A DNA stretch of 64,000 nt from a virus (Duplodnaviria > Heunggongvirae > Uroviricota > Caudoviricetes): the IMG/VR virus record IMGVR_UViG_3300002641_000714, one strand, 5' to 3'. The position numbers and the translations under genes were made by a program. Of the stretch, positions 13,434-33,083 are shown in pieces (within the stretch, counting starts at the first letter, position 1; each line of letters starts with the position of its first letter). The notes below the pieces were generated by a model. That model saw nothing but the letters and a program-made list of their open reading frames with translations. It did no database searches and was not told the origin of the DNA.

Positions 13434-13436
13434 AAG

Positions 13437-13640: not shown

Positions 13641-13646
13641 AATTTA

Positions 13647-14264: not shown

Positions 14265-14266
14265 AA

Positions 14267-14569
14267 TTATTTAAGATTTTGTAATTCGCGTTTTCTACGT
14301 TCTGCACAGTATTTACAATTGCCTTTGTGAGCCAAATATCCATAGCCAGTACCCGGCTCGTATCTATTACCAATAAGATACTCACAACTATCAATAACTA
14401 CAGTTCTAAGACAAAGGTCTCCGTATTGTTCATTTACATTAATAATATCTGCTTTTACTTTATATACATCATTGGTTCTTTCAACCTCATGATATATATT
14501 CGTATCAGGTTGTTCGCTACAAGAAGCCATTGCAAATAAAATACTTATTAAAATAAAAATTTTCTTCAT
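14267..14569 (-). CDS. Small lipoprotein
   Basis: Internal start MKKIFILISILFAMASCSEQ (signal peptide plus lipobox). The track's longer N-terminus overlaps the upstream gene and is unlikely to be real. Confidence 0.5.
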   Translation of the reverse strand: MKKIFILISILFAMASCSEQPDTNIYHEVERTNDVYKVKADIINVNEQYGDLCLRTVVIDSCEYLIGNRYEPGTGYGYLAHKGNCKYCAERRKRELQNLK

Positions 14570-14570
14570 A

Positions 14571-14942
14571 TTATTTTGATTTTTTAGTTCTTGTTTTCTT
14601 TGGTTTTTCTTCAATTTCACCTTTAGCAATCTTTTCTGCTTTTTCTTTAGCCTTAGCTTCACGTTTCAACTTTCGTTGTTTATCACCCCACTCCTTTGCT
14701 CTTTCTACAAGTTCTTTATGTTTTTGTTCAGCTTCCTTAGGATGTTCACGTTCCCATTGAATTTGGTCCCATACAAAACTTCCATAACCAAGTTTCCAAC
14801 TATGATAGTGCGGGCACATTAAAAACCAATGCGCATCTTGTCCCTCTTCAATGCATTTACCTTTCATTATGCATGTTTTCTTACAAACATCCTCTTGAAA
14901 TTGAGGAACATCTTTTTTATCATAAAATGATTGATTAGCCAT
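14571..14942 (-). CDS. Hypothetical protein with a basic C-terminal tail
   Basis: 123-aa ORF with a TAA stop. Confidence 0.55.
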   Translation of the reverse strand: MANQSFYDKKDVPQFQEDVCKKTCIMKGKCIEEGQDAHWFLMCPHYHSWKLGYGSFVWDQIQWEREHPKEAEQKHKELVERAKEWGDKQRKLKREAKAKEKAEKIAKGEIEEKPKKTRTKKSK

Positions 14943-14944
14943 AA

Positions 14945-15313
14945 TTATTTTAAAATACGTTCAAAAAAATGTTTCTTTATATCTTCATCACTGTTATAAT
15001 CAATGAAAACACATTGAACTGTAGTTCTTGCTCTCAGATTTCGTTCTCCTATGTTTATATTTGGGTCATTTTTAAAGGCAATTAATTTTTCAATATCATT
15101 TTTATTAATATGCACATATCCTTTATTATCTTGTACACCAAATATTCTAATAAGTCCTCCATAGAACATTATTTTGAAATCGTCATCAGAAAGATGTGAT
15201 AACACTTCCGGAATATTATATTGGTCATCTGCAATAAATGAACCATCTTCATACCACTTAATTATCTCAGACAATAATCTAAATGAGTTATCAAAAAATA
15301 TGTTTCGTATCAT
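14945..15313 (-). CDS. Hypothetical protein
   Basis: 122-aa ORF with a TAA stop. Confidence 0.55.
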   Translation of the reverse strand: MIRNIFFDNSFRLLSEIIKWYEDGSFIADDQYNIPEVLSHLSDDDFKIMFYGGLIRIFGVQDNKGYVHINKNDIEKLIAFKNDPNINIGERNLRARTTVQCVFIDYNSDEDIKKHFFERILK

Positions 15314-15354
15314 TTTATATAAAATTAAAATTATTTACTTAAAATAAAAGTTAT

Positions 15355-15480
15355 GGACCAAAATAACGTATTTGCTGCCCACGCAGCAGTTTGCCATTCT
15401 TTATCTATTAAATAACATCCAATAGCAAAAATAGAAATTGCAATTGTTACAAGACTTAAAAATTTAAGGGTTTTCATACT
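15355..15480 (-). CDS. Small membrane protein (about 41 aa)
   Basis: MKTLKFLSLVTIAISIFAIGCYLIDKEWQTAAWAANTLFWSI. The early promoter-like motif is directly upstream. Confidence 0.35.
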
Positions 15481-15506
15481 TTTAATATTTAAATGTTAAT
15501 ACTATC

Positions 15507-15560
15507 TTTTTTAATTACGATGCAAAGATAATACTTTTTTCTTAAATTAAAAAATAGAAG
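15507..15560 (-). promoter_or_regulatory. Conserved early/middle promoter-like motif
   Basis: ttttaattacgatgcaaagataatacttttttcttaaattaaaaaatagaag. On the coding strand this reads CTTCTATTTTTTAATTTAAGAAAAAAGTATTATCTTTGCATCGTAATTAAAA, ending about 25 nt before the ATG. Confidence 0.55.
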
Positions 15561-15567
15561 TTAATAT

Positions 15568-15732
15568 TCATCTGGATAAAAACCTAATACGATCATTGGT
15601 TCAAATACCTCATCATGGTCTTGTGTGACATCATAAAGATGTGCATTGTCATATGTTTCTGCTTTTATTGTACACTCACTTGGGTCAAAACCATTTTCGT
15701 TTGCATAATCTATTAAATCTTGTAATGTCATA
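15568..15732 (-). CDS. Small hypothetical protein (54 aa)
   Basis: MTLQDLIDYANENGFDPSEC... It sits between two promoter-motif instances. Confidence 0.35.
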
Positions 15733-15760
15733 ATTTTAAATATTTAAAAGTTAATATTAT

Positions 15761-15811
15761 TTTTAATTACGATGCAAAATTAATACTTTTTTCTTAAATT
15801 AAAAAATAGAA
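15761..15811 (-). promoter_or_regulatory. Conserved early/middle promoter-like motif
   Basis: ttttaattacgatgcaaaattaatacttttttcttaaattaaaaaatagaa. Confidence 0.55.
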
Positions 15812-15824
15812 ATTAAAAATAAAA

Positions 15825-15840
15825 GGTGGAATTACCCACC
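15825..15840 (-). terminator. Terminator hairpin after the RNA-ligase gene
   Basis: On the minus strand GGGTGG-gtaatt-CCACC is followed by TTTTATTTTT. Confidence 0.55.
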
Positions 15841-15846
15841 CTTCAT

Positions 15847-17529
15847 TCAATTTTCTTCAGAAGAATCGTCCGTGTATCGTTCTTGCATTTCAATATCATT
15901 AGAACGTCCTTTATCAATATCTTCTGCTTCTTTTCCGAGGAACTTCAAGCACTTAAGTTTAAATGCCTCTGCCATTGGATCATCATTGATTCGAAGAACA
16001 ATGCCTTCACGTGGAAGTTTATTTTTACACAATGGTTCATCCATTTCCATACAGAATTTCTTATCAGATTTCATTGCATTCAAAACATTTTCATGCCAAT
16101 GATTTTTAATATCAATTTCAGGATACAAATTCTTCATATCTCCATTATACAAAATTGGAATAGGAACAATTTGATCTGCATAATGAGTTCCGTGCATATT
16201 ATCAAGCTCTTTAAGAGTAAAAATAAGTGCTCGCTCAGTATAATCGTGAACATCTTGAACATTGAACTCAAATACTTGTCCATCTTCCATTACTCGTTTG
16301 ATACGATAAATCATAAGTTTATTCTCACCAGGTTTGCAACCATAATCGTAAACTTTACCTCCAAGAGATTGAATACCAGAAGTACTGTCAGGAAGATAGC
16401 CTACAATTTCACCATATAAAGTCATTCCTTGCGGAATAATACCTTTAAGGATATCATAGTATTGCTTCCATACATCAACTCCATAAAAACCGTCTTTTTT
16501 AGATTGAATAGGATTTTTAAACAAGTCTTTAATTTTATCCCAGAAAGTTTTAGGTGTTCCGTCTTCATTCAATACACGTTTGTTTTTCTTAAACAATGAA
16601 CGCAGTGTACGTGTAATATGATTATACCAAGTATAAATGTATTGATATACAGCTGCAAGCATATTTTGATTTTTAATTACACTACGAGAACTATAAATTA
16701 CATCATAATCTTCAGTAGTAAATTGCAAGAACTTTGGCAAATATACAAATAGTTTTGAATATAACCCTCTATATTTCGGCTTATGAACTTTTACATTACC
16801 AAAAATTGCTGATGTTCCATGAAGCTTTACTGAAATTGCAACTGAAGTTTCAGGCTGCAATCTTCCAATCTCACGTTGAAGTTGTTGAGTATCATAGTGG
16901 AATGCAAATTGTCCAGGAATCATACGATCATATTTTTTAATTTGTTTTTCATGACGTCCAACTCGATTTCCACGTTTCTCTTCTTTAACTTCAGGAACAT
17001 ATGCCTTTACGAACAAATCACCATTAATGGTATCAAAATCTTCACCAATATGTTGAGACCAATCAAAATGCTCAATAAGAAAAGTCTCATTGTAGGTACT
17101 CATTTGATCAGGTGAAATAAGATATCCCATAGACATAACGCCCTTAATTCGCTTCATACGAACACGACATTTCTTATCAAAGTATCCACGATTAGCTGCA
17201 ATATATGATTTAATATCATCTTCAGATACCCTGTCTGCTTTCATTTGCTCTACATGTTTTTGAATTTCAGAATAATTTGCATTAAGTTCCTCATCCTGAA
17301 ACTCATTGTTATAATGCAAAAAAAGTTGATCAAGCTGGCACTCATTAGATACATAAATCATAATATCGCCCTCTTTAACGCGATCTTTACGAACTACAAT
17401 TTCTCGACCTTCAACCATTACAGTGGCGAGAAAATCAGTTCCTTCAATTGGAGTCAATTCACCCAATTGAACAACAGTGGCACAATACTCATGTGACATG
17501 TCTTTAGATTGTGATAGTAAATTTCTCAT
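15847..17529 (-). CDS. Putative RNA ligase (Rnl2-like nucleotidyltransferase)
   Basis: Motif I VKLHGTSAIFGNV (T4 Rnl2 has KIHGTN), an EGIVLR motif-IV-like element, and an N-terminal extension. TGA stop. Confidence 0.5.
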   Translation of the reverse strand: MRNLLSQSKDMSHEYCATVVQLGELTPIEGTDFLATVMVEGREIVVRKDRVKEGDIMIYVSNECQLDQLFLHYNNEFQDEELNANYSEIQKHVEQMKADRVSEDDIKSYIAANRGYFDKKCRVRMKRIKGVMSMGYLISPDQMSTYNETFLIEHFDWSQHIGEDFDTINGDLFVKAYVPEVKEEKRGNRVGRHEKQIKKYDRMIPGQFAFHYDTQQLQREIGRLQPETSVAISVKLHGTSAIFGNVKVHKPKYRGLYSKLFVYLPKFLQFTTEDYDVIYSSRSVIKNQNMLAAVYQYIYTWYNHITRTLRSLFKKNKRVLNEDGTPKTFWDKIKDLFKNPIQSKKDGFYGVDVWKQYYDILKGIIPQGMTLYGEIVGYLPDSTSGIQSLGGKVYDYGCKPGENKLMIYRIKRVMEDGQVFEFNVQDVHDYTERALIFTLKELDNMHGTHYADQIVPIPILYNGDMKNLYPEIDIKNHWHENVLNAMKSDKKFCMEMDEPLCKNKLPREGIVLRINDDPMAEAFKLKCLKFLGKEAEDIDKGRSNDIEMQERYTDDSSEEN

Positions 17530-17646
17530 AATTTTAAATGTTTTTAATTGTTAATTTTTATTTTCTCCGCCACCAGCGATATTTCTATCGCAATTTATTA
17601 TTATAATTATTATTTATATTTTGTTTCAATCGGTTTATTACATTCA

Positions 17647-17922
17647 TTAATCGACAACTCCTAAAATTTTAGTATTATTGCCATACCAAAACCTCATGCA
17701 AGCAGGCTTATCATAATCATCAAGATAAAATTTATAACTACGAATAATTACTTTTGTATCTTCTGGATATTCTGGTTCACAAAATAAATGTTCTTTTTCA
17801 TAATCAAAATCATAATCTTTGCCTTCTGTCAATGTTGATAATTTTTCATATACAAGAGACATTGGTTTAGTTTCGAATTCACAAAATTCCAAATATAAAT
17901 TATTATAATCAGTTAATGTCAT
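17647..17922 (-). CDS. Hypothetical protein
   Basis: 91-aa ORF with a TAA stop. Confidence 0.5.
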   Translation of the reverse strand: MTLTDYNNLYLEFCEFETKPMSLVYEKLSTLTEGKDYDFDYEKEHLFCEPEYPEDTKVIIRSYKFYLDDYDKPACMRFWYGNNTKILGVVD

Positions 17923-17950
17923 ATCTTATTTTCTCTTTTTATAATTATTA

Positions 17951-18259
17951 TTATGGTACTATTTTCCATTGATAACACCACCATTTGATATTGTATTTTT
18001 CTTTAAGCCAACTCCAATGATTTTCTACTGATTTAAGAGTTCCTATCTTTTTATTTGCAGTACAATAAATAATGGGTTCATTTTCTAATTCTGGAAAATA
18101 AACATCTGCATTTTTCCATTCTATTGTTAATATAAAATTATCTTCCATAATTTTACAATCAAAATATTTTATATCAGCTTTCGAACCGTTTTCAATATCA
18201 ATAGGTAACAACTCGGGTTGTCTTGTTGTCATTGCAATACCTTTTGTAATTGCTTCCAA
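17951..18259 (-). CDS. Hypothetical protein
   Basis: 102-aa ORF. The listed start is TTG, so the true start is uncertain. A degenerate copy of the early motif lies at 18341-18378. Confidence 0.45.
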   Translation of the reverse strand: MEAITKGIAMTTRQPELLPIDIENGSKADIKYFDCKIMEDNFILTIEWKNADVYFPELENEPIIYCTANKKIGTLKSVENHWSWLKEKYNIKWWCYQWKIVP

Positions 18260-18527
18260 TGCAGCTTTGTCTTCACTATGTAATCCGTCAAACCAATTCT
18301 TTATGTCAGGATTTTTACTTATATCCTCAACTGTTTTTATTTTTTAATTACAACGTAAAAATAATAAAAATGGAAGTTAATAATTTCTTTGTTTTCTTTC
18401 AGGTTTTAAACTAACATTAGTTTCAAATAATTCACAACTACAATTTTTTGATTTTTCGCAGTTATTAAATAAGTTGCATATTTTACAATACTGAGATTCC
18501 ATAATTAATTATTGTATTTTAATTTTA

Positions 18528-19109
18528 TTATTTACGTATTCTGAGCTCAGCAAAATCCCATATTTCTTTAATACATTTTTTATTAATGTATGATTCAGGA
18601 TCTAATCCTAATATTTCCTTTTCAGCTAAATCATTAAATACCTCTGTCAAAAAGTGTGCGGTATCTTTATGCATTTTTGCAATTTTCTTTTTGTTTTCCC
18701 ACCACTCAAATTCGCCTTTATATGTAAAATTGTTACCAAGATATGCTTTTGCCGCACCAATATAATCACAAACCATCTCAACTGCATATTTATAGGGCAT
18801 TTTTATGCAAACCGTGCCTTCATCATATCTATCTGTCCAATATTCATAATGATGAGGATTACGGCCTTTATGATGCTGCCATGCTAATGAATACCCTTTA
18901 TCTGCCTTACATACATTGATTGGCGAACTTGTTCCTTGATAATATCTTACAGATTCCCAAAATTCAACCCATGAAAATTTAGACAAATCGTGAGTAATAC
19001 CTTGCCAATACAATCCAGCCTTAAAGCAATAATATGCTACCCAGAATTTATGTACACAAATTTTCTTAAAATGCGCTAATGTATTTTTTAATGTAATTTT
19101 ATGCTTCAT
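18528..19109 (-). CDS. Hypothetical protein (His-rich motifs HHKGRNPHHYEYW)
   Basis: 193-aa ORF with a TAA stop. Confidence 0.55.
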   Translation of the reverse strand: MKHKITLKNTLAHFKKICVHKFWVAYYCFKAGLYWQGITHDLSKFSWVEFWESVRYYQGTSSPINVCKADKGYSLAWQHHKGRNPHHYEYWTDRYDEGTVCIKMPYKYAVEMVCDYIGAAKAYLGNNFTYKGEFEWWENKKKIAKMHKDTAHFLTEVFNDLAEKEILGLDPESYINKKCIKEIWDFAELRIRK

Positions 19110-19114
19110 AATTT

Positions 19115-19336
19115 TTATTTATTAGGCCCTGTAATTTTCATATAGCTTTTTTCTTCTTTTAACTTTTTTTCAAGCCATGTAGCATAATCAGTCCACCAAA
19201 CATTAAGAGTTGTAGTTTTTCCACCAATAACAATAGTATAACCGACCTCTTCACCCTCTGCACATGGTATAAATGTAACATCACCGATAGGATGAATATT
19301 CATTTCTTGTTCAAGATATTCAACAATATATTTCAT
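19115..19336 (-). CDS. Hypothetical protein
   Basis: 73-aa ORF with a TAA stop. Confidence 0.5.
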   Translation of the reverse strand: MKYIVEYLEQEMNIHPIGDVTFIPCAEGEEVGYTIVIGGKTTTLNVWWTDYATWLEKKLKEEKSYMKITGPNK

Positions 19337-19353
19337 AACTTTATTAAATTATT

Positions 19354-19473
19354 TTAACCCAAAAATAAGCCCACAATTACACCTAATATTGCTCCAATTG
19401 CTCCGCAACCTAAAATATATAGAATTGCCAATACCCACACAGGGAATTCAAATTCAAATTTTACCTTTTTCAT
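19354..19473 (-). CDS. Small membrane protein (39 aa)
   Basis: MKKVKFEFEFPVWVLAILYILGCGAIGAILGVIVGLFLG. Its ATG overlaps the stop of the upstream gene (ATGA). Confidence 0.35.
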   Translation of the reverse strand: MKKVKFEFEFPVWVLAILYILGCGAIGAILGVIVGLFLG

Positions 19474-19730
19474 AATCCATGTACTTTAATATGCATATTC
19501 AAACATTTTTCTATTCCGGATTCATATAATTGATTTTGATTTCCATATTCATTTTTCCCATTAATTTCCAAAATGATTCTATATAAAATATATCCATCCT
19601 GTTTAACTTCATCCCATACATAATCAGAATCAACTAAATAATCATAACCACAAATAGAACCTTTATGAGTTTCATATTTATTAGAGATAATATCTCCCCT
19701 TTTCAGCGTTTTAAATTCTTCTTTTGTCAT
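19470..19730 (-). CDS. Hypothetical protein
   Basis: 86-aa ORF with a TGA stop. Confidence 0.5.
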   Translation of the reverse strand: MTKEEFKTLKRGDIISNKYETHKGSICGYDYLVDSDYVWDEVKQDGYILYRIILEINGKNEYGNQNQLYESGIEKCLNMHIKVHGL

Positions 19731-19884
19731 GGTTTAATCATCATTTGAACGTTGTGTACCAAAATAATTTAATTTTTCTTTAAATTTTTGATTCCAATTA
19801 ATAGACATATCAAATTTACTGTTTATTATTTCATTAAGAATTTCTTTAAATGCAAACTCTGCATCAATTTGTTCTACTTTCATA

Positions 19885-21873
19885 TTAATTGAATTTTTGA
19901 AGTTTGTTTAAAATTTGTTTATATGCCAATGCATCATTAGATGTAATAGGACGTTTAACCTTATTTTTAAGTTTCCACCATTTAATGGTTTCTTTAATAA
20001 GCTCGTCACTTACATTAGGAACTTGTCCCTTTAATAATAGTATAAAAGATTCCTCTTGTTTCATTTCTTCCAATAATTGTTTATGAACATTTTCCAACAT
20101 TGGCATAATGCTTAGATAATCTGCGCGATTAATTCGATTATTAAGATAATATTCTACAGTTTCAATATCTAATGCATCATAATTAAGAACTTCACGCGCA
20201 TCAGTATAAACCTTAAATGATATACGGTTTTTTCTATCTGGATCATAATGCCATGTTTTATCTGGCATATATTTAATTACAAAATCACCATGAGAATTTT
20301 TCTCGATTGTATATAAACCGGTTTCTGGAACATTCGGAAGCCCCCATGTGTCATCTTTATCACGGTTCCAAGAATAATATCTTTCATCAAAACGATCTTG
20401 AACACCCATTACATAATTTTGTAAAAATAATATGCGAGAACCAACTTTAATGTCTTTATTAATTTCTGTTACGAAATGCCAATAATCAGGATGCCCATCA
20501 CTAACACGTTTATATTCGGCATCATACACAAATTCAACATATGGAGATTCTAATCCTTCTTTGAATAGGTTAACCGGATTATGCGGAGCCAAAACATCTG
20601 AACGATCAAGCAAACCCTGAAGTAAACAGAAATTAAATTTATATCTGTCTATAAAATCTTCAATTTGTTCTTGTTTATTTTTTCTTATATAGTGTATGCC
20701 TTCCTTCTCCAATTCATCTACAAGTTTTTGAAGCTCATCTTGCTTTGGAAACAAATATGGATGGATAATTAAATCTGCCCAAATTCGATATACGTTATCG
20801 CCATTTCTAACAATAATATATGTTTTTACATCATTCTCGTCTAATTCATTTATTAAATATGGATTATAAACATAATGATGCCCATATTTAATTTCACCAC
20901 CTTGTTTTCCATTTCTGCGAACACGGAATACGCGAACACCTTTCTTAGATACAAATAAATCAAGGTGGTTATTTCTGAGAAGCCATTCGTCAAATTGCTC
21001 AATTTTTGTAAAATCAAGACCACCATCTTTCCAATCACCAACCTCTTCATCCATATAAAGAACCTCTTGGAAGAATTGAATAGGTTCATCAATCGGTGCA
21101 GGCGTACCTTCTTGAATTTGAATAACATCTTCATTGACACCTGTATACAATTCAAGCTGACCAAGAACCCTGCGAATACGTGTCAACTTACGTTCAACAA
21201 CCATTATTGCATCTCTATATTTACGTTGTATTGCTTCAACTTTTTCACGTTGTTCAGCGATACACATTTTAACAATAGCGAGCTTTCGATCCATTTCCTC
21301 TTTAAGAGCAAGTGTGGTATTTTGCGCATTTAAATATGTTTGTTTTGATGCAGATATACTAACAAGTGCTGTACTTTCCTCGTTGGTGTCGTCATCACTT
21401 ATATTATCTGTTTGTAAAAACTCATCATCTTTACCATTAATTGCATCCATACCGCAATTTACATATGCAACTAATTCCTCTTTATTTTTAAAAACCAAAT
21501 AATTTCTTCCATAATCTGTGCCATTAATTGACAATGCTCTAACTTCGGTTCTTTCAGGATTATATCCACCAAAACCAACTTCATATTCTTTATCTATAAA
21601 TGGATCAAATCCTACAACCTTTACATTAAGGTGATATGTATCTAATTCAATTTCTTTACGTTCACCATTTTCAAATTCTAATTTGATGTCTTTTTCCGGT
21701 TCAATAGATACAATACGATAACAACGTGGATCATGCCAAGACATATCAACAATATAATTACCCGGCTGAATATCCTTCTGCCAGTCTTTTGGATGAGTTT
21801 CAAGAGCATTTGCAATCTGTGCATCTCTTGTAACTAATTCTTTACTTTGATATTTTTCAATATTGTTATCCAT
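19885..21873 (-). CDS. Large hypothetical protein (662 aa)
   Basis: Uninterrupted ORF with a TAA stop. No recognisable motif. Confidence 0.6.
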   Translation of the reverse strand: MDNNIEKYQSKELVTRDAQIANALETHPKDWQKDIQPGNYIVDMSWHDPRCYRIVSIEPEKDIKLEFENGERKEIELDTYHLNVKVVGFDPFIDKEYEVGFGGYNPERTEVRALSINGTDYGRNYLVFKNKEELVAYVNCGMDAINGKDDEFLQTDNISDDDTNEESTALVSISASKQTYLNAQNTTLALKEEMDRKLAIVKMCIAEQREKVEAIQRKYRDAIMVVERKLTRIRRVLGQLELYTGVNEDVIQIQEGTPAPIDEPIQFFQEVLYMDEEVGDWKDGGLDFTKIEQFDEWLLRNNHLDLFVSKKGVRVFRVRRNGKQGGEIKYGHHYVYNPYLINELDENDVKTYIIVRNGDNVYRIWADLIIHPYLFPKQDELQKLVDELEKEGIHYIRKNKQEQIEDFIDRYKFNFCLLQGLLDRSDVLAPHNPVNLFKEGLESPYVEFVYDAEYKRVSDGHPDYWHFVTEINKDIKVGSRILFLQNYVMGVQDRFDERYYSWNRDKDDTWGLPNVPETGLYTIEKNSHGDFVIKYMPDKTWHYDPDRKNRISFKVYTDAREVLNYDALDIETVEYYLNNRINRADYLSIMPMLENVHKQLLEEMKQEESFILLLKGQVPNVSDELIKETIKWWKLKNKVKRPITSNDALAYKQILNKLQKFN

Positions 21874-21886
21874 AAAATTATTTTAT

Positions 21887-21938
21887 TTTTAATTTCGATG
21901 CAAATTTAATACATTTTTCTTAAATTAAAAAATAGAAG
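21887..21938 (-). promoter_or_regulatory. Conserved early/middle promoter-like motif
   Basis: ttttaatttcgatgcaaatttaatacatttttcttaaattaaaaaatagaag. Confidence 0.55.
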
Positions 21939-21939
21939 C

Positions 21940-23046
21940 TTAATTAGTTTCCATTAAATATGCTTTAATAAATTCATCAATATTTCCATTCATAACAGAA
22001 TCTACATCAGAAGTTTGATAATTTGTTCGATGATCTTTTACACGTTTATCATCAAAAACATAACTTCTAATTTGTGCGCCCCAGCCAATTGGCATCTTTT
22101 TATTTTCTATTTCTGCTTGAACTTGACGACGTTTTTCAAGCTCTAATTCATATAATTGGCTGCGCAAATGTTGCATTGCAATTTCTCTGTTTTTCGGTTG
22201 GTCTCTTGATTCTGTACTTTCTGCTACCAATTCATCTTCCTGTCCGGTTAACGGATTAATAAACTTATAATGAAGTCTTACCCCAGATTCAACTTTATTT
22301 ACATTCTGCCCGCCTGCGCCAGAAGATCTAAATGTATCCATTGTAATATTTGCAGGATTAATATTAACTTCAATAGAGTCATCTACTAATGGACATACAA
22401 ATACACTTGCAAAACTTGTCATACGTTTTCCTTGTGCATTATATGGACTTACCCGCACTAATCTGTGTATACCTGTTTCTCCTTTAAGATGGCCATATGC
22501 AAAATCTCCATATACATTAAATGAAACAGTTTTAATTCCTGCAGTATCGCCTTTTTGATAGTTTGTTATTTCTCCTGTAAAATTGTGATTTGCAAAATAA
22601 GATAGATACATTCGCATTAACATTTCGGCCCAATCTTGTGCTTCAGTTCCACCTGCTCCAGCCACAATTTTTAAAACTGCAGGCATTTTATCCTCATCAT
22701 TATTTAGCATTGTTTGCATTTCATATTTAGAAATCGTTTCTAAACATGTATTATATAATGATTTGGACTCCTCTTGAGACAATTCTTCATCAGATAACAA
22801 TTCTAAATAAGTAATGTTATCATCAGTTAAATTAATATCATATAGCAAGTTAGATAAATTTTTCCAATCTTTCGAAATTTTTTCTGCCATTTTTGCATCA
22901 TTCCAAAAAGCTGGATCATGCATTCGCATATTCAACTCATTTTCTTGATTCTTTTTATCTTCAAAATGGATACAATTTTTTAAATATTCAAATCGCTTTC
23001 GAAGTTCTTTAACATTAATATTTGAATTTAACATTTTCATTCCCAT
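21940..23046 (-). CDS. prfB: Class-I peptide chain release factor, RF2-like
   Basis: Has the GGQ motif (SSGAGGQNVNKVESGVRL). The tripeptide anticodon region reads RLVRVSPYNAQGKRMTSF (SPF-like SPY, not the PxT of RF1). Continuous ORF with no +1 frameshift site. Confidence 0.8.
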   Translation of the reverse strand: MGMKMLNSNINVKELRKRFEYLKNCIHFEDKKNQENELNMRMHDPAFWNDAKMAEKISKDWKNLSNLLYDINLTDDNITYLELLSDEELSQEESKSLYNTCLETISKYEMQTMLNNDEDKMPAVLKIVAGAGGTEAQDWAEMLMRMYLSYFANHNFTGEITNYQKGDTAGIKTVSFNVYGDFAYGHLKGETGIHRLVRVSPYNAQGKRMTSFASVFVCPLVDDSIEVNINPANITMDTFRSSGAGGQNVNKVESGVRLHYKFINPLTGQEDELVAESTESRDQPKNREIAMQHLRSQLYELELEKRRQVQAEIENKKMPIGWGAQIRSYVFDDKRVKDHRTNYQTSDVDSVMNGNIDEFIKAYLMETN

Positions 23047-23339
23047 ATATCATTTTCTTCAACCCAATCTATTTTAACATTCGGACGTTCATTACTATTT
23101 ACACAATATTTCATATAATATTCATAATCAGAATGAACACCAAGTGATTTTATTTCTTCATCATTTGTCCAATCAATATCCTCTATAAGTCCATACATTA
23201 TAGTAATACGATTCTGCATATTTATGTAATTTATCCCAACAATATGTCCTGAATAATTACTATATTTTTGTGCTAATGGTTCCCAAATACGATAATTAAC
23301 ATGTTGGTTAAAATCATATTTATTATCTATTTGTATCAT
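23037..23339 (-). CDS. Hypothetical protein
   Basis: 100-aa ORF with a TGA stop. Confidence 0.5.
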   Translation of the reverse strand: MIQIDNKYDFNQHVNYRIWEPLAQKYSNYSGHIVGINYINMQNRITIMYGLIEDIDWTNDEEIKSLGVHSDYEYYMKYCVNSNERPNVKIDWVEENDIWE

Positions 23340-23350
23340 TTTATTTAATT

Positions 23351-23728
23351 TTATTTTTTATAGTTGTAAATATTTTCTTGCAAATATGCATTTAACAAAC
23401 ATTTAAAATGTGTTAATGCATTTTTATCTGCAATATTATTTTCTAAATGTTTAAAAAATTTGCAATTTAACTTTTCAATAAATGCATCCCTATAATAATG
23501 CCTAACATTTTTTGGAAGGCAATTATAATATATACCAGTTTCATGAATAATTCTAGAAAATACATTAATAAACCAATATTGCATATTATCATCTCCATTA
23601 GTAATAATATCTTCACAAACATCTACAATATTTTGTAAACCATTATGCTTTTCAGGAATTAGTGAATGCAGTTGATTAAATAATGATTGCATTGTTTTTT
23701 CACTGTAATGTTTAATATTTGTTTTCAT
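23351..23728 (-). CDS. Hypothetical protein
   Basis: 125-aa ORF with a TAA stop. Confidence 0.5.
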   Translation of the reverse strand: MKTNIKHYSEKTMQSLFNQLHSLIPEKHNGLQNIVDVCEDIITNGDDNMQYWFINVFSRIIHETGIYYNCLPKNVRHYYRDAFIEKLNCKFFKHLENNIADKNALTHFKCLLNAYLQENIYNYKK

Positions 23729-24123
23729 TTTTCTGTTGGATTTGTTTTAAAATAATTATCAAATTTTTCCTGTTCCCACCAATTGATATTATCAATTAGA
23801 CTTTTAATAGATTTTTCCATTGCTTTATAACTTCTAAATGGTTTTCTACTTCGTAACCAAAATAAATATGATGGATGTTTATCACTTCCATCTACAAGAA
23901 TTTCCCATTTTCCATCACTATAATTTCGATTTATACATCTAAAAAGTTTACCAAGCCTAATAAAATCATTACAAAAGAAAAATATCATATATCTTTCTTT
24001 TAAATGTCCGCAACAGCTTTCCAAAGTTTCAATACCATCTAAAGAATTAAGTTTTTCACATAATTCAATACATTCCTTATCCATATCTTCAATAGGAAGA
24101 TCTATCTTTTTTCCATTAATCAT
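23725..24123 (-). CDS. Hypothetical protein
   Basis: 132-aa ORF with a TGA stop. Confidence 0.5.
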   Translation of the reverse strand: MINGKKIDLPIEDMDKECIELCEKLNSLDGIETLESCCGHLKERYMIFFFCNDFIRLGKLFRCINRNYSDGKWEILVDGSDKHPSYLFWLRSRKPFRSYKAMEKSIKSLIDNINWWEQEKFDNYFKTNPTEK

Positions 24124-24125
24124 AA

Positions 24126-24593
24126 TTAATTGTAATTTTTTATAAAATATGTTGAATATACCGGGTATGGTTCCCCAAGCATTGCATTCATATAATCAAA
24201 TCTTCTATGATTCATTTCTGCTTCTTTCTTAAGATAATCAGTATAAGATATTTCTGGATGAATTTTGTTCCATTCTTCAATAAACTTATTATGAGAATCT
24301 TGATAAATCTTCGGAACTTGGATAGGTTCAAAGTATTTCCCATTAATTAACTTAATGAGATCTCTGAATTTATCAGTGAATTTGTATTTTTCATAAAATT
24401 CACCAGCCTTATCAACAAACTGTGCATATAAATCGGCAATGGTAATAATCTCTCGTAAATCATTTGTTCGTTTAATACCCATATCGCCAGTATAACTAAT
24501 ACCCCAAGTATCAATTAGCCAAATAACCTCAAAATCCTCACCAAATTGTATGGCAAGTTGACGAATTTCTTTAAGCATTTTGTTGTACGTCAT
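24126..24593 (-). CDS. Hypothetical protein
   Basis: 155-aa ORF with a TAA stop. Confidence 0.5.
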   Translation of the reverse strand: MTYNKMLKEIRQLAIQFGEDFEVIWLIDTWGISYTGDMGIKRTNDLREIITIADLYAQFVDKAGEFYEKYKFTDKFRDLIKLINGKYFEPIQVPKIYQDSHNKFIEEWNKIHPEISYTDYLKKEAEMNHRRFDYMNAMLGEPYPVYSTYFIKNYN

Positions 24594-24596
24594 AAT

Positions 24597-24893
24597 TTAC
24601 AATGTTTTAGTTAATACTCCATATTTTTCTGTTATAAGATTTCCATTTTTATCAATGGTTCCAGTTTTTTCTAAATCTCCACAATCTTCAATCAAGTTAT
24701 GTTTTTCATCAAACCACTGATTTGGTTTAATTTCATAGTTATTTAATTTTTTTATTTCTATATGCAAACATGCAGGATCATTTAAAAACCTCAATACTTG
24801 TTTTAATACTTCTAATTTCCCGTAAAGCACTCTTTTCATACTAGCATGATATGAGTGTAATTCCTGATAGTAATATTCATTTTCTTGTTTCAT
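24597..24893 (-). CDS. Hypothetical protein
   Basis: 98-aa ORF with a TAA stop. Confidence 0.5.
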   Translation of the reverse strand: MKQENEYYYQELHSYHASMKRVLYGKLEVLKQVLRFLNDPACLHIEIKKLNNYEIKPNQWFDEKHNLIEDCGDLEKTGTIDKNGNLITEKYGVLTKTL

Positions 24894-25471
24894 ATCTCAT
24901 TATTAAAATACCGCATTCTATTAAAATTAAAATAACCAATTATATTACTATGATTAATTACATCATTATTTAATATACCTATCCATTCATTTAATGGAAC
25001 ATTATTTACTAAAAAATTATGTAATTGTAAACTAAAGTATCTTCCATATTGGTTAATATCAATATCAATATCATCATAATCTGATTGTGCAAATGTTATT
25101 CCGTGTTGGTCTGCTTCACTTTCATTTGAAATAAACATTCCAGTAAAAAACCCATGCAAATGATGTGTTTCGGCAAAATCTGCTGCATAACACCATGAAC
25201 CAATAACATTCCGTGCATGAATTAAATGCACATTATTTTCATGAATAATGTATTGTCCTGAATTCAAATTTGGATGAAGTAATCCTTGTGTGGTTCCATG
25301 TCCACACATAATTAATGTATCATTTTCTGACATAATGGCCGCATCAACAATATCCTCATAATCTTCTGTGTCATGAGTTATTTCAATAATTCGATCAGGA
25401 TTCAAACCCTCCCATATTAATTGAAGAAGTTGAGTATCTTGATCGCCAAAATTTGAATAAATTATAGTCAT
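24890..25471 (-). CDS. Hypothetical protein (MCGHGT motif)
   Basis: 193-aa ORF with a TGA stop. Confidence 0.5.
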   Translation of the reverse strand: MTIIYSNFGDQDTQLLQLIWEGLNPDRIIEITHDTEDYEDIVDAAIMSENDTLIMCGHGTTQGLLHPNLNSGQYIIHENNVHLIHARNVIGSWCYAADFAETHHLHGFFTGMFISNESEADQHGITFAQSDYDDIDIDINQYGRYFSLQLHNFLVNNVPLNEWIGILNNDVINHSNIIGYFNFNRMRYFNNEI

Positions 25472-26109
25472 TTTTCTTCATTAGTTTCATTAAACATCGG
25501 AACTTTTGCTAATCTTTCTATCAACTCGTCTGGAATATCATGCCAGTCAAGCCAATCCCATTTTGCAATATAAAATACTGCACCATTTTCTGTCGGTTTC
25601 CAATATTCGTCAAAAATCCCATTCCAAACTTTACTGCGTTGTTTCCATTGTTGCCATGATAAATCTAGGTCAGGATCTCCAGAATCACCATACCAATAAT
25701 CATCAACAATAGTCATTATCAAATCTCTATTTTCTTGACAATGATCACATCCAAAATAATTTCCATATAAATTTCCATGATATGGATATATCATTACTTG
25801 TAATGAATAGTCTAAATCACCATTTAACCGAGCTTCATCATCTTTACGACTGCCTAAATACCGAATAATTTCAAACTTTGCTTTTAAAAGGTTTTGTTCA
25901 GACGGATCATTTTTATATGCAATAATATCTTCTTTAAGGTATTGATTCATTTTATGGTCAAGTCCCACAAGAAGACCGATATAATTACCATGCAACAATG
26001 AATTGGCCATATTTTTTAAGGCCTGCTTTCTAATAGATTTCAAAGAATCTACTGCCTTTTCAAAACTCTTTGTTCGGAATTTAATTCCTGTATATACATT
26101 AAAACTCAT
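25468..26109 (-). CDS. Hypothetical protein
   Basis: 213-aa ORF with a TGA stop. Confidence 0.5.
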   Translation of the reverse strand: MSFNVYTGIKFRTKSFEKAVDSLKSIRKQALKNMANSLLHGNYIGLLVGLDHKMNQYLKEDIIAYKNDPSEQNLLKAKFEIIRYLGSRKDDEARLNGDLDYSLQVMIYPYHGNLYGNYFGCDHCQENRDLIMTIVDDYWYGDSGDPDLDLSWQQWKQRSKVWNGIFDEYWKPTENGAVFYIAKWDWLDWHDIPDELIERLAKVPMFNETNEEK

Positions 26110-26124
26110 AATATACTATATTTT

Positions 26125-26400
26125 TTATTTTCTACAAATAAATTTAAAAATTTTTTCTTTACGTTCTTGACTTTTTCTATATTGTTCAGCACGTTCTTTA
26201 TTAATTTTATTATGTTTTTCAATTAATCTTTTTCTTTCCTCATCACTACAATGTATAGTTATTTTTCCAATAGGGCCACAATATTTCCAGCCTTGAATTT
26301 TATATTCTTCTTCATACCATATATGATCTTTAATAGTAGCAATACATAAAATAACAAAAGCTATAAATCCAAGTATTGCTATTAATTTTTGTATTATCAT
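26125..26400 (-). CDS. Small membrane protein
   Basis: N-terminal TM helix IIQKLIAILGFIAFVILCIATI. TAA stop. Confidence 0.5.
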   Translation of the reverse strand: MIIQKLIAILGFIAFVILCIATIKDHIWYEEEYKIQGWKYCGPIGKITIHCSDEERKRLIEKHNKINKERAEQYRKSQERKEKIFKFICRK

Positions 26401-26417
26401 ATTTTATAATTTTTTAT

Positions 26418-26468
26418 AATTTTTATGTTGCAAAAATAATACTTTTTATTTAAATTAAAAAATAGAAG
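26418..26468 (-). promoter_or_regulatory. Conserved early/middle promoter-like motif (variant)
   Basis: ttttatgttgcaaaaataatactttttatttaaattaaaaaatagaag. Confidence 0.5.
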
Positions 26469-26556
26469 TTTATTATTTTAATTATTATAATTTAAAATGG
26501 GAAAATGTTTCACAACATCTTCCCACCCAATATATAATTAAAAATAATATCATTTT

Positions 26557-27723
26557 TCACTTTTTGATATTCAAATCATGAAAACATTGTTGAATTTCTG
26601 TTTCATCTCCCATTACCTTTCCGGCATCATCGCTCACTTTAATGCAATGAACCCATGGACTATTTGCATTCATTCTGCATTGCATTAATTTCATTACAAT
26701 ATTCTGGCTTGGCGTATTCGTATCACATGTAAGGTTTGTTCCAATGCCAGCTGAACATTTAATTTTGCCTTTACAATAATCAGCAATCTCTTTATATTTC
26801 GGAAATGTCAATGCATTTGAAAATACAATAGTTTTATCTTTAGGATCAATTCCCTTAGCTTTGTATGCATCAATTACCATCTGTGTATATTCATATTCAT
26901 CTCCCGAATCATGACGAACACCATCAAATAATTTTGCATGTTTCATTGTAAATGTATCAAAGAATGCTTTAGAACCATATGTATCAGTTAATGCAATTCC
27001 AAGATTTCCATCATAAACAGAAACCCAGTCTTCATATGATTTATAATTCGCATTTCGATAACCAAATTGTGCTGCATGGAACATAATCCATTCATGTGCG
27101 ACAGTTCCAATAGGTTTCATACCATACTTCATTGCAAGATGAACATTGGATGTTCCTACACAATAAAGCGCATTTTCTTTAAGACGTTTTACTACAGCAT
27201 CTTGAACATTATAGCTAAAACGGCGGCGGGTACCAAACTCACTAAATACCAAGCTATACTCATTTGACAATGCAATCTTTGCATCAAGCCGTTTCAACAT
27301 ATCTGCCATATTAATTATATGAACACGATTTGATACTTCGGAAACAATAGCAAGACATGCAATTTCCCAAAAAGTCAGACGATATAATTTATCGGTTGCC
27401 TCGATATGAAGAATTTTATTATCATCAAGATATACCTTAACTTTACTTGCATCAAATCTAAAACCGCGAAGCCACTCCCAGTAAAATTCAGGAATATAAG
27501 GAATATGTTTTACGCACCAATTAAACTCATCTTCTGTTAAATACAAATCCTCAAGTTTTTTAATTTCATTAAGGATTTGTTCTACGTCAGATTGTGTCCG
27601 TTTAACTCGATTACGATCACAAAACTCAAATACTCCTTCAGCTTCAGGATAAAGCTTCATATATGCATAACTCATACTGAGTTTATACAAATCTGTATCT
27701 AAAATACTTTTAATTACTCCCAT
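26557..27723 (-). CDS. pncB: Nicotinate phosphoribosyltransferase
   Basis: ILDTDLYKLSM, FSEFGTRRRFS, GTSNVHLAMKYGMKPIGTVAHEW, LGIALTDTYG, RHDSGD and SAGIGTNLTCD all match E. coli PncB blocks. Confidence 0.85.
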   Translation of the reverse strand: MGVIKSILDTDLYKLSMSYAYMKLYPEAEGVFEFCDRNRVKRTQSDVEQILNEIKKLEDLYLTEDEFNWCVKHIPYIPEFYWEWLRGFRFDASKVKVYLDDNKILHIEATDKLYRLTFWEIACLAIVSEVSNRVHIINMADMLKRLDAKIALSNEYSLVFSEFGTRRRFSYNVQDAVVKRLKENALYCVGTSNVHLAMKYGMKPIGTVAHEWIMFHAAQFGYRNANYKSYEDWVSVYDGNLGIALTDTYGSKAFFDTFTMKHAKLFDGVRHDSGDEYEYTQMVIDAYKAKGIDPKDKTIVFSNALTFPKYKEIADYCKGKIKCSAGIGTNLTCDTNTPSQNIVMKLMQCRMNANSPWVHCIKVSDDAGKVMGDETEIQQCFHDLNIKK

Positions 27724-27731
27724 AAATCACT

Positions 27732-28415
27732 TTATTTAAATTGTTTTTCTTTTAATGCATTCAATTCATTTTCAACTTTTTTAAGTTGTATTTTTGCATT
27801 CTCAGCTTTACGTATAATTTTATTTAACTGCTTTATTTTATGTGTTAATTCACTAACACGATATTCATATATTTCAGTTTTTATTTTATTAATATACTTA
27901 TCAAACTCATCAAGTTTGTATCCAACAACCTGCATATTTACATTAATGCCCAAATCACATGAATGATCCAATACAATATCTTGAAAATACTTGAATTCCA
28001 TCCGTTCTATATAATCACTACCATATAGCCATTTATTTCCAAAATATTTTTCAGTATAATAATAGCCAACAAAAATTGGTTCTGTGCATTCAACATTTAT
28101 AAATTTATATGTTGTGTGCAATTTGTCAGCTTCATTATTGCTATTTTTATATATTGACCATATATCACTTGTTAGATTATTCTTAATAATATCTGCTGAA
28201 ATACCAGTAACAAGACTTACATATTTGCAAAATGCATTTACGTCATTTTCTCGTTCTTTAATATATAAATCTATATGTTTTTTACCACTAATAATAAATC
28301 CATGTCCACAAACAGGAGGCATGTAGTTATATATAAACTCTTTAATATATGGACATAAATCTTTTGGAGAAAATGCCGCAAAATTTTTAGGATCGACTTC
28401 AATTAAATTTTCCAT
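27732..28415 (-). CDS. Hypothetical protein with a C-terminal coiled coil
   Basis: 227-aa ORF with a TAA stop. Confidence 0.55.
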   Translation of the reverse strand: MENLIEVDPKNFAAFSPKDLCPYIKEFIYNYMPPVCGHGFIISGKKHIDLYIKERENDVNAFCKYVSLVTGISADIIKNNLTSDIWSIYKNSNNEADKLHTTYKFINVECTEPIFVGYYYTEKYFGNKWLYGSDYIERMEFKYFQDIVLDHSCDLGINVNMQVVGYKLDEFDKYINKIKTEIYEYRVSELTHKIKQLNKIIRKAENAKIQLKKVENELNALKEKQFK

Positions 28416-28458
28416 TATTAACTTTAATTTTTAAAATTTATAATGTTTACTAATGTTT

Positions 28459-28719
28459 TTAAATTAAACCAATATGAGTACCACAAACCAAACAATCCCT
28501 ACTATACCATCCGCAACCTGTTGGTGTATCAATAAAAATATGAAATTTACATTCGCCATTTTTATTATAATATTCCAAAGCTTCTTCAACTTCTTTTTGT
28601 GTTGCCTCACGTACAGTAGAACCGCCACATTGGCAATGCACATACGTATCATTTTCAGAACACCGCGCTGAAATAATTTGTTTAGTTCTATTTGATATTT
28701 CTACAAATCCTTTTAACAT
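28459..28719 (-). CDS. Small Cys-rich protein
   Basis: 86 aa with multiple Cys pairs (CQCGG, CLVCG). TAA stop. Confidence 0.45.
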   Translation of the reverse strand: MLKGFVEISNRTKQIISARCSENDTYVHCQCGGSTVREATQKEVEEALEYYNKNGECKFHIFIDTPTGCGWYSRDCLVCGTHIGLI

Positions 28720-28742
28720 AATATTAATTTTTACTTAAAAAT

Positions 28743-29018
28743 CTACACATAAATGACTTTGTATATTGTATGCCAAGTTTTTCTTCGTGTCAATACATAA
28801 TATTTACGACGTTCTTTAACATAATAACAATCCTTAATATAATGTGCATCACCATCATTAATAACAGTGGTTTTTCCATTAACCCGAATCATTTCACCTG
28901 GCAATGGCACACGAGTTGCATATGTATGCCACTTTAGCTCTTTGTTAAAAAACTTTGCAATTTCTTTTGCAGTCATTACATACTTTGTAATTTTTACAGG
29001 AATAACTTCATAACCCAT
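28743..29018 (-). CDS. Hypothetical protein
   Basis: Internal start MGYEVIP avoids overlap with the cca gene. The stop is TAG, with 3 further codons to a TAA. Confidence 0.4.
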   Translation of the reverse strand: MGYEVIPVKITKYVMTAKEIAKFFNKELKWHTYATRVPLPGEMIRVNGKTTVINDGDAHYIKDCYYVKERRKYYVLTRRKTWHTIYKVIYV

Positions 29019-29022
29019 ACTT

Positions 29023-30480
29023 TTAAAATTTATAATGTTCATCAATATACTTATATAATGCATCTGGTGTATTCTCAACAATATTATCAAGAACTGCATC
29101 TTTAATAAGTTGTTTAATTTCACCGACTTGCCGACTTGGTGTCAAATGATAACGAATCATAATATCATCTCCAGATACACATGGTTGGAACAATCGCACA
29201 TAATCTTTTTGCTTAAGATCTTCAATACGTTGTTTCAATTCATCATATTGTTTCCAGAAATTTTTCTTCTTCTCTTCATGTTTCGTTGTAATATCGGCTT
29301 TTGCCAAAATTAACAACTCATCAATATAACCATTTGCATCATGAACAAGACGACGTACAGCAGCATCAGTTACACCCTCATCACAAATTGCTTGAGGCCT
29401 CATATGCATACGAACCATAGTCTCTACAAAGTCCATATTTTCATCCAGAGGCATCTTCATGCGGCTGAATATAGATTTTATCATCTTAGCTCCTACATAT
29501 TCGTGGTTGTCAAAAGACCAGCCTTTATGAGCATTCCAAGATCTGGTTTTCATTTTACCAATATCATGAAATAATGCGGCAATACGAAGCCATACATTAT
29601 CAGACTGTTTAGTAACATTGTCAAGTACATGCAAAGTATGCCAGAAAATATTTTTGTGGCCACGTACATACTCAGATACAGTTGAAGCTCTGGTAGTATC
29701 CATTTCTACCAATTCTGGTAAAAACTTTTTAAGTAAACCAAAATTTTTCAGAATTTCAATTCCGTCTTTTGCATGATTAGATGCCATGATTTTCATAAAC
29801 TCTGTAGTAATTCGCTCAGCAGAAATAATATCAAGACGATCTACATTTCGTATAATTCCATCTTGAGTTTTCTGATCAATTCCGAAATCAAGCTTGCACA
29901 TAAAACGAACAGCCCGAAGCATACGTAGTGGGTCATCACTGAATGTAGTATCAGGATCTACAGGAGTCCGAATAATTTTATTCTTCAGATCTTCAATTCC
30001 GTTAAACGGATCAACCAACTCACCAAAATGTTCAGCATTAAGTTGAATAGCCATAGCATTAATTGTAAAATCACGGCGAAGCTGATCATCTTCAAGAGTT
30101 CCATCCTCTACAATAGGTTTACGAGAACCACGTTCATATGATTCTTTACGAGCACCGACAAATTCTACTTCCCAATTTCCAAAATGAACCTGGGCTGTAC
30201 CAAAGTTTTCAAATATTGATAATTTAATATTGTCAAAATTTGATTCCCTTTTCAAATATTCTGTAAAAGCCTCTGCAATTTTCTGTCCCTTTCCGACTAC
30301 CACAACGTCAATATCATCATTGGGCCTGCCAAGAATTAAATCACGAACATAACCGCCGACAACATAACATGGATATTGTAAAGTGTCAGCAACCTTCTGA
30401 ATATTGCAAAGAACTCCAAAAATATCTGGAGTTTTTTGAATTTCTTTTAGAATTGTATTTTTATCAAATTGTGTTAACAT
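29023..30480 (-). CDS. cca: CCA-adding tRNA nucleotidyltransferase with an HD domain
   Basis: GGYVRDLILGRPNDDIDVVV and RRDFTINAMA (class-II nucleotidyltransferase head) plus HD-domain motifs HTLHVLD and HDIGK. Confidence 0.8.
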   Translation of the reverse strand: MLTQFDKNTILKEIQKTPDIFGVLCNIQKVADTLQYPCYVVGGYVRDLILGRPNDDIDVVVVGKGQKIAEAFTEYLKRESNFDNIKLSIFENFGTAQVHFGNWEVEFVGARKESYERGSRKPIVEDGTLEDDQLRRDFTINAMAIQLNAEHFGELVDPFNGIEDLKNKIIRTPVDPDTTFSDDPLRMLRAVRFMCKLDFGIDQKTQDGIIRNVDRLDIISAERITTEFMKIMASNHAKDGIEILKNFGLLKKFLPELVEMDTTRASTVSEYVRGHKNIFWHTLHVLDNVTKQSDNVWLRIAALFHDIGKMKTRSWNAHKGWSFDNHEYVGAKMIKSIFSRMKMPLDENMDFVETMVRMHMRPQAICDEGVTDAAVRRLVHDANGYIDELLILAKADITTKHEEKKKNFWKQYDELKQRIEDLKQKDYVRLFQPCVSGDDIMIRYHLTPSRQVGEIKQLIKDAVLDNIVENTPDALYKYIDEHYKF

Positions 30481-30526
30481 ATTAAATTATAATTAATTTT
30501 TGTAATTTGTTTCTGTATATGTTTAA

Positions 30527-30766
30527 TTAATCACATTTATATTCGTTAATTAACTCATCAAGATTATAAAATACAACTCTTCCATCACATGGCTGATAAA
30601 ATCGTACATCAATTAAATATGTATATTTTAATGTACAATTTATATCATTCATTTCATCTGCAACTATTCTTGAATATAGTGAACCTCCCATTGTATTAAA
30701 TAGTTCAGATTTCTTTTTTAATTCACAAAGTAAATCATAAATATCTTTTTTGTTTTCTATATTCAT
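30527..30766 (-). CDS. Hypothetical protein
   Basis: 79-aa ORF with a TAA stop. Confidence 0.45.
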   Translation of the reverse strand: MNIENKKDIYDLLCELKKKSELFNTMGGSLYSRIVADEMNDINCTLKYTYLIDVRFYQPCDGRVVFYNLDELINEYKCD

Positions 30767-30776
30767 AATTATAATA

Positions 30777-30829
30777 TTTTTAAATTCGATGCAAAATTAA
30801 TACTTTTTTCTTAAATTAAAAAATAGAAG
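30777..30829 (-). promoter_or_regulatory. Conserved early/middle promoter-like motif
   Basis: ttttaaattcgatgcaaaattaatacttttttcttaaattaaaaaatagaag. Confidence 0.55.
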
Positions 30830-30832
30830 TCA

Positions 30833-31441: not shown

Positions 31442-31453
31442 AGTTGATATTAT

Positions 31454-31505
31454 TTTTAATTACGATGCAAAATTAATACTTTTTATTTAAATTAAAAAAT
31501 AGAAG
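31454..31505 (-). promoter_or_regulatory. Conserved early/middle promoter-like motif
   Basis: ttttaattacgatgcaaaattaatactttttatttaaattaaaaaatagaag. Confidence 0.55.
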
Positions 31506-33081: not shown

Positions 33082-33083
33082 AA

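Follow-up and report, generated by a model that had tools for sequence, protein, structure and literature searches.

The 64,000-nucleotide stretch of the virus record IMGVR_UViG_3300002641_000714 (IMG/VR; Caudoviricetes) that we analyzed, hereafter the window, encodes a release factor 2 (RF2; prfB-like gene) in a phage that reads TAG as a sense codon. We put the probability at about three in four that this is a working, Bacteroidales-derived RF2 of a Lak-related megaphage, where it would support termination at UAA and UGA during TAG recoding. The association of RF2 with TAG recoding is known from the Lak phages, and here it is found in a related but distinct clade. The coordinates of the features are collected in Table 1.

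The open reading frame (ORF) is an RF2-type, full-length class I release factor, as an initial annotation made from the sequence alone had proposed. The protein scores 417.1 bits with the NCBIfam model of prfB (TIGR00020; cutoff, 370) and falls under the cutoffs of the two RF1 models (231 and 207 bits; cutoffs, 400 and 423). The models of PrfH (52 bits; cutoff, 167) and ArfB (45 bits; cutoff, 100) also score too low, the latter matching residues 226 to 261 only. These sub-cutoff scores ruled out RF1, ArfB, and PrfH as identities, and for RF1 the SPY tripeptide of the recognition loop did so as well. Pfam identifies PCRF (PF03462; 2.3e-47; residues 33 to 215) and RF-1 (PF00472; 6.4e-31; residues 224 to 340), i.e., the complete class I architecture of PCRF (domains 2/4) followed by the GGQ domain. 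The best match among solved structures is Escherichia coli RF2 (2.6e-82; residues 9 to 364), with RF1 chains at around 1e-40. The profile comparison thus places the protein with RF2, finds no PxT motif in the recognition loop, and sets aside the ArfB-like paralog that the initial annotation had named as the competing identity. An identical-sequence look-up found no database record of the exact protein.

The 5' end of the ORF has three in-frame ATG codons. One of them, at 23040, shares the sequence ATGA with the stop codon (TGA) of the upstream gene; translation from it gives a protein of 366 amino acids (aa), which is also the length of RF2 in the close relative P0001. This ATG is the probable start. 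The ATGA overlap suggests that the upstream gene and RF2 are cotranslated as parts of one operon. A scan for promoters and terminators around the gene gave nothing above shuffled controls.

The phage reads TAG as glutamine (Gln, Q). ORFs of 100 aa or more cover 81.6% of the window with TAG as a stop and 89.5% with TAG as a sense codon, and a simple gene model yields 80 genes at a coding density of 91.5%. These genes end in TAA (68 genes, 85%) or TGA (12 genes), and 20 of them, including those of the capsid and the tail sheath, contain a total of 56 in-frame TAGs. An independent, near-identical assembly (L010) has the same TAGs as the window. The alignment of the capsid protein with that of Lak-C1 continues across the TAG at codon 98, a site that is also TAG in L010, Gln in three other relatives (L012, L017, and L018), and tyrosine (Tyr, Y) in Lak. 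We tallied the partner residues of TAG sites with well-conserved flanks, comparing the genes of the window with orthologs or paralogs in Lak-C1 and five closer relatives. Gln is the partner at 16 of 40 sites, followed by asparagine and serine with 4 each. Tyr had been raised as a candidate by two capsid sites and was rejected on this wider tally (Q, 16/40; Y, 2/40). Single sites in relatives show the same exchange: the invariant capsid residue Q628 (PETQYITF) is a TAG in L011 (PET-TAG-YITF), and KMTIQEWIY has the counterpart KMTI-TAG-EWIY in L001, with fully conserved flanks. A family of repeat proteins provides an internal witness for TAG as Gln, since TAG and CAA/CAG interchange at its Gln positions. 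The six paralogs of this family share an N-terminal QGQxSSK and FNQ(P/D)(L/I)xxWN(V/I) repeats. A scan of related loci with another protein, the one having 11 TAGs, matched nothing. Hence, the initial annotation was right about the co-occurrence of RF2 with TAG recoding; the suppressor tRNA that it also assumed is not in the 64-kb window.

The RF2 gene has no TAG itself and lies in the middle of a long block of TAG-free genes. If TAGs were as frequent here as elsewhere in the window, the block should contain about 27; it contains none (Poisson P of about 1e-12). With no in-frame TAG, the genes of the block can be decoded by the standard code. This matches published accounts, in which genes for the code change are kept in standard code and Lak genomes have large TAG-free regions. 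These elements suggest how the system could work, in a scheme that homology and context support well. Host ribosomes, using the standard code, could make RF2 from the TAG-free block shortly after infection, although we infer this early timing. RF2 would then recognize UAA and UGA with its SPY loop and release the peptide with its GGQ motif, leaving UAG untouched. Later in infection, many genes, including structural ones, would be translated with UAG as Gln, presumably by a phage tRNA(CUA) encoded elsewhere. The additional RF2 could keep termination at TAA and TGA efficient, because all 80 modeled genes end in one of these codons. It may be most needed if RF1, which competes with the suppressor for UAG, loses that competition or is disabled, since RF2 would then carry all the termination at UAA; the link to RF1 is our assumption.

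Several observations weigh against this interpretation. The mechanistic need for RF2 is indirect, because more RF2 alone leaves RF1 terminating at UAG. The suppressor is the missing part: ARAGORN and Rfam found no tRNA in the window, and ARAGORN found none within 10 kb of the RF2 and capsid loci of relatives. Strict and relaxed pattern scans for a tRNA(CUA) of the Lak type hit only Lak-type or unrelated contigs and none of the closest relatives, and a scan with the Lak gene located beside tRNA(CUA) (L150 30218-32131) hit Lak-type contigs only. Domain 1 of the protein is just 25 to 35% identical to that of cellular RF2, when the other domains reach 70 to 82%. Finally, RF2 may be dispensable in some lineages because its 5' end has lesions in several relatives. 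One of these is an in-frame TGA in a sister phage (L001/L011), described below. Another is a 1-nucleotide deletion in a run of five A's (L004 4436-4446), and in a third lineage the start codon has changed from ATG to ATC (L006 430-436).

Since the window has no tRNA, the suppressor partner of this phage would have to be supplied by analogy with the Lak relatives (PMC6784885). The whole genome of Lak-C1 encodes 30 tRNAs, among them two tRNA(CUA), at about 184.5 and 185.4 kb, and a tRNA(UUA) at 254,126-254,198 of the record. One of the two tRNA(CUA) has UGGGG at its start, with CCCCA at the close of the acceptor stem, which we take to resemble tRNA-Gln. The two tRNA(CUA) genes (184,533-185,512 of the record; L150 34533-35512) are some 830 nucleotides apart and have between them a TAG-containing ORF that, by eye only, looks like a GIY-YIG homing endonuclease. 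The RF2 gene of Lak-C1 is at 332.8 kb, about 147 kb away from the tRNA(CUA) genes, so the parts of the system are not clustered.

This absence of a compact module fits the idea that RF2 is a general boost to translation in an AT-rich genome whose genes mostly end in TAA, its co-occurrence with TAG recoding being incidental. The same idea would account for the presence in the window of a CCA-adding enzyme and an RNA ligase, and for the wealth of translation genes in huge phages, of which the tRNAs of Lak-C1 are an example; TAA indeed ends 68 of the 80 genes. However, published surveys tie RF2 to TAG-recoded clades and RF1 to TGA-recoded ones, which is unexpected under a generic boost. Furthermore, RF1 would serve equally well at TAA, yet both the Lak phages and the clade of the window have retained RF2. 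We therefore regard this explanation as unlikely and favor the role in termination during TAG recoding.

The RF2 gene is phage-borne, in agreement with the initial annotation. The guanine-plus-cytosine (GC) content of the window is 28%, and its genes include those for DNA polymerase, RNA ligase, SbcC, SbcD, primase, SSB, thymidylate synthase, NAPRTase, and a CCA-adding enzyme. The RF2 gene is flanked by phage genes and has 31% GC, with 18% at third codon positions (GC3), against 49 to 50% GC and 56 to 61% GC3 in the prfB genes of Paludibacteraceae. It is found in synteny in three other independent contigs (L001, L004, and L006). The window belongs to a megaphage related to Lak, because its capsid protein shares 61% identity with that of Prevotella phage Lak (residues 7 to 639, 99% of the length) and its relatives are on very large contigs. 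The whole genome would measure roughly 0.5 Mb. At this capsid identity, the phage represents a related clade and not Lak proper. Nearer relatives, found in IMG/VR on contigs of 263 and 381 kb, have capsids 81 to 82% identical. Overall, relatives of the window are on contigs of 212 to 491 kb, the upper value coming from the RF2 clusters of the close relatives P0001 and P0003. The nearest nonphage homologs of RF2 are bacterial, and this could raise the suspicion of bacterial contamination or of a chimeric assembly. The low GC3, the same gene order in four independent contigs, and the overlap of the RF2 start with a phage ORF reduce that chance to almost nothing.

RF2 is a host-type gene, probably captured from Bacteroidales and long resident in the phage, and its base composition is now phage-like. 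The closest proteins form a phage clade, 77 to 96% identical. Next in line are cellular RF2 proteins from herbivore-gut Bacteroidales, Paludibacteraceae among them (60 to 65%), and the closest bacterial prfB products are 62 to 67% identical. Over residues 40 to 364, the identity is 65 to 67% with Paludibacteraceae, about 58% with Prevotella, and 52% with Lak-C1. This pattern favors donors separate from those of the Lak RF2. A neighbor-joining tree groups the RF2 of the window clade with that of Lak, possibly by long-branch attraction.

The motifs of the protein are also those of Bacteroidia. The GGQ motif was correctly recognized in the initial annotation and aligns with that of E. coli (residues 245 to 247). 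The tripeptide is SPY and not PxT, as had been stated, and it sits on the SPF of E. coli; although called SPF-like there, it is no unusual variant, because SPY is the norm in Bacteroidales RF2. It is the only form in 80 of 80 Bacteroidales RF2 genes and is present in Lak-C1 too. These 80 prfB loci (L067-L146), from standard-code genomes, are the nearest to the phage gene; about 600 stretches of the species-genome collection matched the RF2 search patterns. The 19-residue loop HRLVRVSPYNAQGKRMTSF is identical in all 80, in a sample that is biased toward this loop since YNAQGKRM was among the search patterns of the genome scan. The loop of Lak-C1 differs by a single flanking residue, V for I before HRLV. 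Downstream of GGQ, the 12-residue insertion NPLTGQEDELVA is common to the RF2 of Paludibacteraceae, Prevotella, Bacteroides, and Lak-C1. It corresponds to the "12 aa-motif" of domain 3 that Ishikawa et al. (PMC4530459) described in Bacteroidia. As cellular Bacteroidales RF2 has the same features, SPY, the Met in place of the E. coli His, and the insertion after GGQ are lineage traits of Bacteroidia, none of them specific to phages.

These traits bear on two further explanations. In the first, the substitutions of Tyr for Phe and of Met for His, visible when SPY and KRMTSF are compared with the SPF and RRHTSF of E. coli, would have altered the stop codon specificity. Against it, the loop is invariant in the 80 cellular Bacteroidales RF2 (with the sampling bias noted above) and has only the one flanking change in Lak-C1, so this scenario is highly improbable. 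From a recognition loop identical to that of cellular RF2, the protein would be predicted to act at UAA and UGA and not at UAG. In the second explanation, the phage RF2 is a weapon against a TGA-recoded host lacking RF2, whose proteins it would truncate at UGA, a model of antagonism (Ivanova 2014) that the literature cites for TAG-recoded phages. This is just as hard to credit, given the Bacteroidia-specific signatures of the protein (12 aa-motif, SPY, and KRMTSF). Its nearest prfB homologs are those of Paludibacteraceae, Bacteroides, and Prevotella, bacteria that use the standard code and have an RF2 themselves, and the Lak phages have been linked to Prevotella (Devoto et al. 2019).

The initial annotation had also contrasted the single frame of the phage gene with the programmed +1 frameshift of bacterial prfB. 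The continuous frame stands, as the first 80 codons contain neither a stop nor a slippery site of the CTTTGA type, but the contrast fails, since 59 of the 80 Bacteroidales loci lack the CTTTGAC site as well. The site is present in the other 21, which include Parabacteroides, some Bacteroides such as Bacteroides xylanisolvens, Muribaculaceae, and Tannerella. It is absent from every Paludibacteraceae metagenome-assembled genome near the phage gene, from Prevotella, and from other Bacteroides. Two prfB genes of the Paludibacteraceae type are continuous ORFs of 368 codons in bacterial contexts. The phage may have inherited its single frame from the donor.

The RF2 gene is under purifying selection, with a ratio of nonsynonymous to synonymous substitution rates (dN/dS) of 0.10 to 0.14 among the phage relatives. 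The 5' lesions in three related lineages could be read as signs of a host-derived passenger gene that is decaying and has no role in the phage. Yet the copy in the window is intact, most members of the RF2 cluster are of full length (361 to 370 aa), dN/dS is around 0.1 even in the lesioned copies, and RF2 has been retained across clades whose capsids are only 61% identical. Decay is thus a very unlikely explanation. In the sister phage, whose RF2 is 94% identical to that of the window, TGA replaces CGA in KELRK-R-FEY at codon 16 of the gene (L001 9932-9934; L011 21620-21622), a position equivalent to 22993-22995 of the window and to codon 18 of its 368-aa ORF. This TGA is present in two assemblies, one from ENA and one from IMG/VR, and downstream of it the gene is still under purifying selection (dN/dS, 0.095). 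The TGA could either be damage or act, by read-through, as a sensor of the RF2 level.

We consider it a long shot, of about the same order as the general boost to translation, that either RF2 entered this clade by a capture of its own, from a Paludibacteraceae-like host, instead of by descent from the common ancestor with Lak, or the in-frame UGA of the sister phage is such a sensor. If the former were true, capture of RF2 would recur at each host shift and the sequence of RF2 would report the host. If the latter were true, read-through of a stop codon in the sister lineage would do the job of the lost +1 frameshift.

Around RF2, the TAG-free block contains several further genes with predicted functions (Table 1). 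NAPRTase and the isochorismatase-like protein possibly act in NAD salvage, and the CCA-adding enzyme and the RNA ligase may contribute to tRNA maintenance or repair. The 662-aa gene directly adjoins RF2 in the window, L001, and L004, and is separated from it by two small ORFs in L006. It has no match in Pfam or PHROG, and its AlphaFold2 (AF2) model (pLDDT, 82) gave no significant fold match. Just outside the block, a gene on the minus strand (33906-34355) has a single TAG, at codon 7 (MIRTLD-TAG-AEKEYY). This TAG is kept in L010, L012, L001, and L011 even though the overall identity falls to 72%, and it may be a gate codon.

Table 1. Features of the window and of its RF2 gene (positions in the 64,000-nucleotide stretch)
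Feature	Position	Strand	Remarks
Release factor 2 gene, prfB-like	21940..23046	-	ATG to TAA; longest ORF, 368 aa
GGTEAQDW, residues 132-139	22630..22653	-	Domain 2 stretch conserved with E. coli and Bacteroidales RF2
SPY tripeptide, residues 200-202	22441..22449	-	Stop codon recognition loop, within HRLVRVSPYNAQGKRMTSF; aligned on E. coli SPF
GGQ motif, residues 245-247	22306..22314	-	Peptidyl-tRNA hydrolysis; aligned on E. coli GGQ
NPLTGQEDELVA, insertion after GGQ	22222..22257	-	Gap in E. coli alignment; 8 residues longer than E. coli
Upstream gene, 100 aa	23037..23339	-	TGA overlaps probable RF2 start (ATGA)
662-aa gene	19885..21873	-	Downstream of RF2; conserved in clade
TAG-free block	13071..33878	-	35 consecutive genes, 6399 codons; RF2 in mid-block
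RNA ligase	15847..17529	-	In TAG-free block
DUF5662 gene	18528..19109	-	In TAG-free block
NAPRTase	26557..27723	-	In TAG-free block
CCA-adding enzyme, HD domain	29023..30480	-	In TAG-free block
SPFH gene	31571..32395	-	In TAG-free block
Isochorismatase-like gene	32419..33081	-	In TAG-free block
Major capsid protein gene	36633..38552	-	One in-frame TAG, 38259-38261 (codon 98)
Tail sheath gene	52523..55837	-	One in-frame TAG, 55676-55678 (codon 54)
Two genes with Lak-C1 homologs	3440..5304	+	4 and 11 in-frame TAGs
Four paralogous repeat-protein genes	39662..43501	+	12 in-frame TAGs; Gln codons and TAG interchange in the shared motifs
Two more repeat-protein paralogs	57210..60028	-	3 and 6 in-frame TAGs; same family as 39662-43501

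With these results, the pairing of a TAG-to-Gln code with a host-type RF2 in a standard-code region extends to two well-separated clades of giant phages of Bacteroidales. This supports the published "code switch" model for the timing of phage genes. The results also hold a lesson for annotation, in which SPY and a single-frame prfB should not be taken for phage adaptations, since both are normal in Bacteroidales. The sequence of RF2 may in addition point to the host, which could be a member of the Paludibacteraceae of herbivore guts rather than Prevotella.

How does the system compare with known ones? The complete Lak genomes of Devoto et al. (2019) all encode RF2 and a CTA suppressor tRNA, with TAG probably read as Gln, and Crisci et al. 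(2021) reported RF2, the suppressor tRNA, and the probable Gln assignment for 51 Lak genomes. According to Borges et al. (2021/2022), RF2 goes with TAG recoding, in the Lak and Agate phages, and RF1 with TGA recoding, in the Jade phages, which matches what the initial annotation had said of the literature. Like the phage of the window, the Lak megaphages are giant, myovirus-type phages of gut Bacteroidales with low GC, which use TAG as Gln in structural genes and have large TAG-free regions. Their RF2 likewise has a single frame, SPY, GGQ, and the Bacteroidia insertion. However, it is only 49 to 52% identical to that of the window, with the capsid at 61%, and in Lak-C1 it is nearest to Prevotella (57%), whereas that of the window is nearest to Paludibacteraceae (65 to 67%). 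The 662-aa neighbor of RF2 in the window clade was not found beside the gene in Lak-C1.

The cellular prfB genes of Paludibacteraceae and other Bacteroidales resemble the phage gene in length (366 to 368 aa), in the identical loop, in the 12 aa-motif, and, for the closest ones, in the single frame. They differ in their GC content of about 50%, in their bacterial context, and in the CTTTGAC site that 21 of the 80 contain. E. coli RF2 (PDB 5u4i, 1gqe, and others) is, like the phage protein, a four-domain class I factor; the two align along their entire length, and GGQ and the tripeptide loop fall in register. The phage protein has SPY for SPF, KRMTSF for RRHTSF, with Met for His, and eight additional residues after GGQ, and its gene lacks the programmed +1 frameshift. 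Finally, the Jade phages of Borges et al. share with the window the principle of a standard-code release factor that spares the recoded codon. They differ in using RF1, in reading TGA as Trp, and in grouping suppressor tRNA, TrpRS, and RF1 in a compact operon beside the lysis genes, whereas the RF2 of the window has neither a tRNA nor a synthetase nearby.
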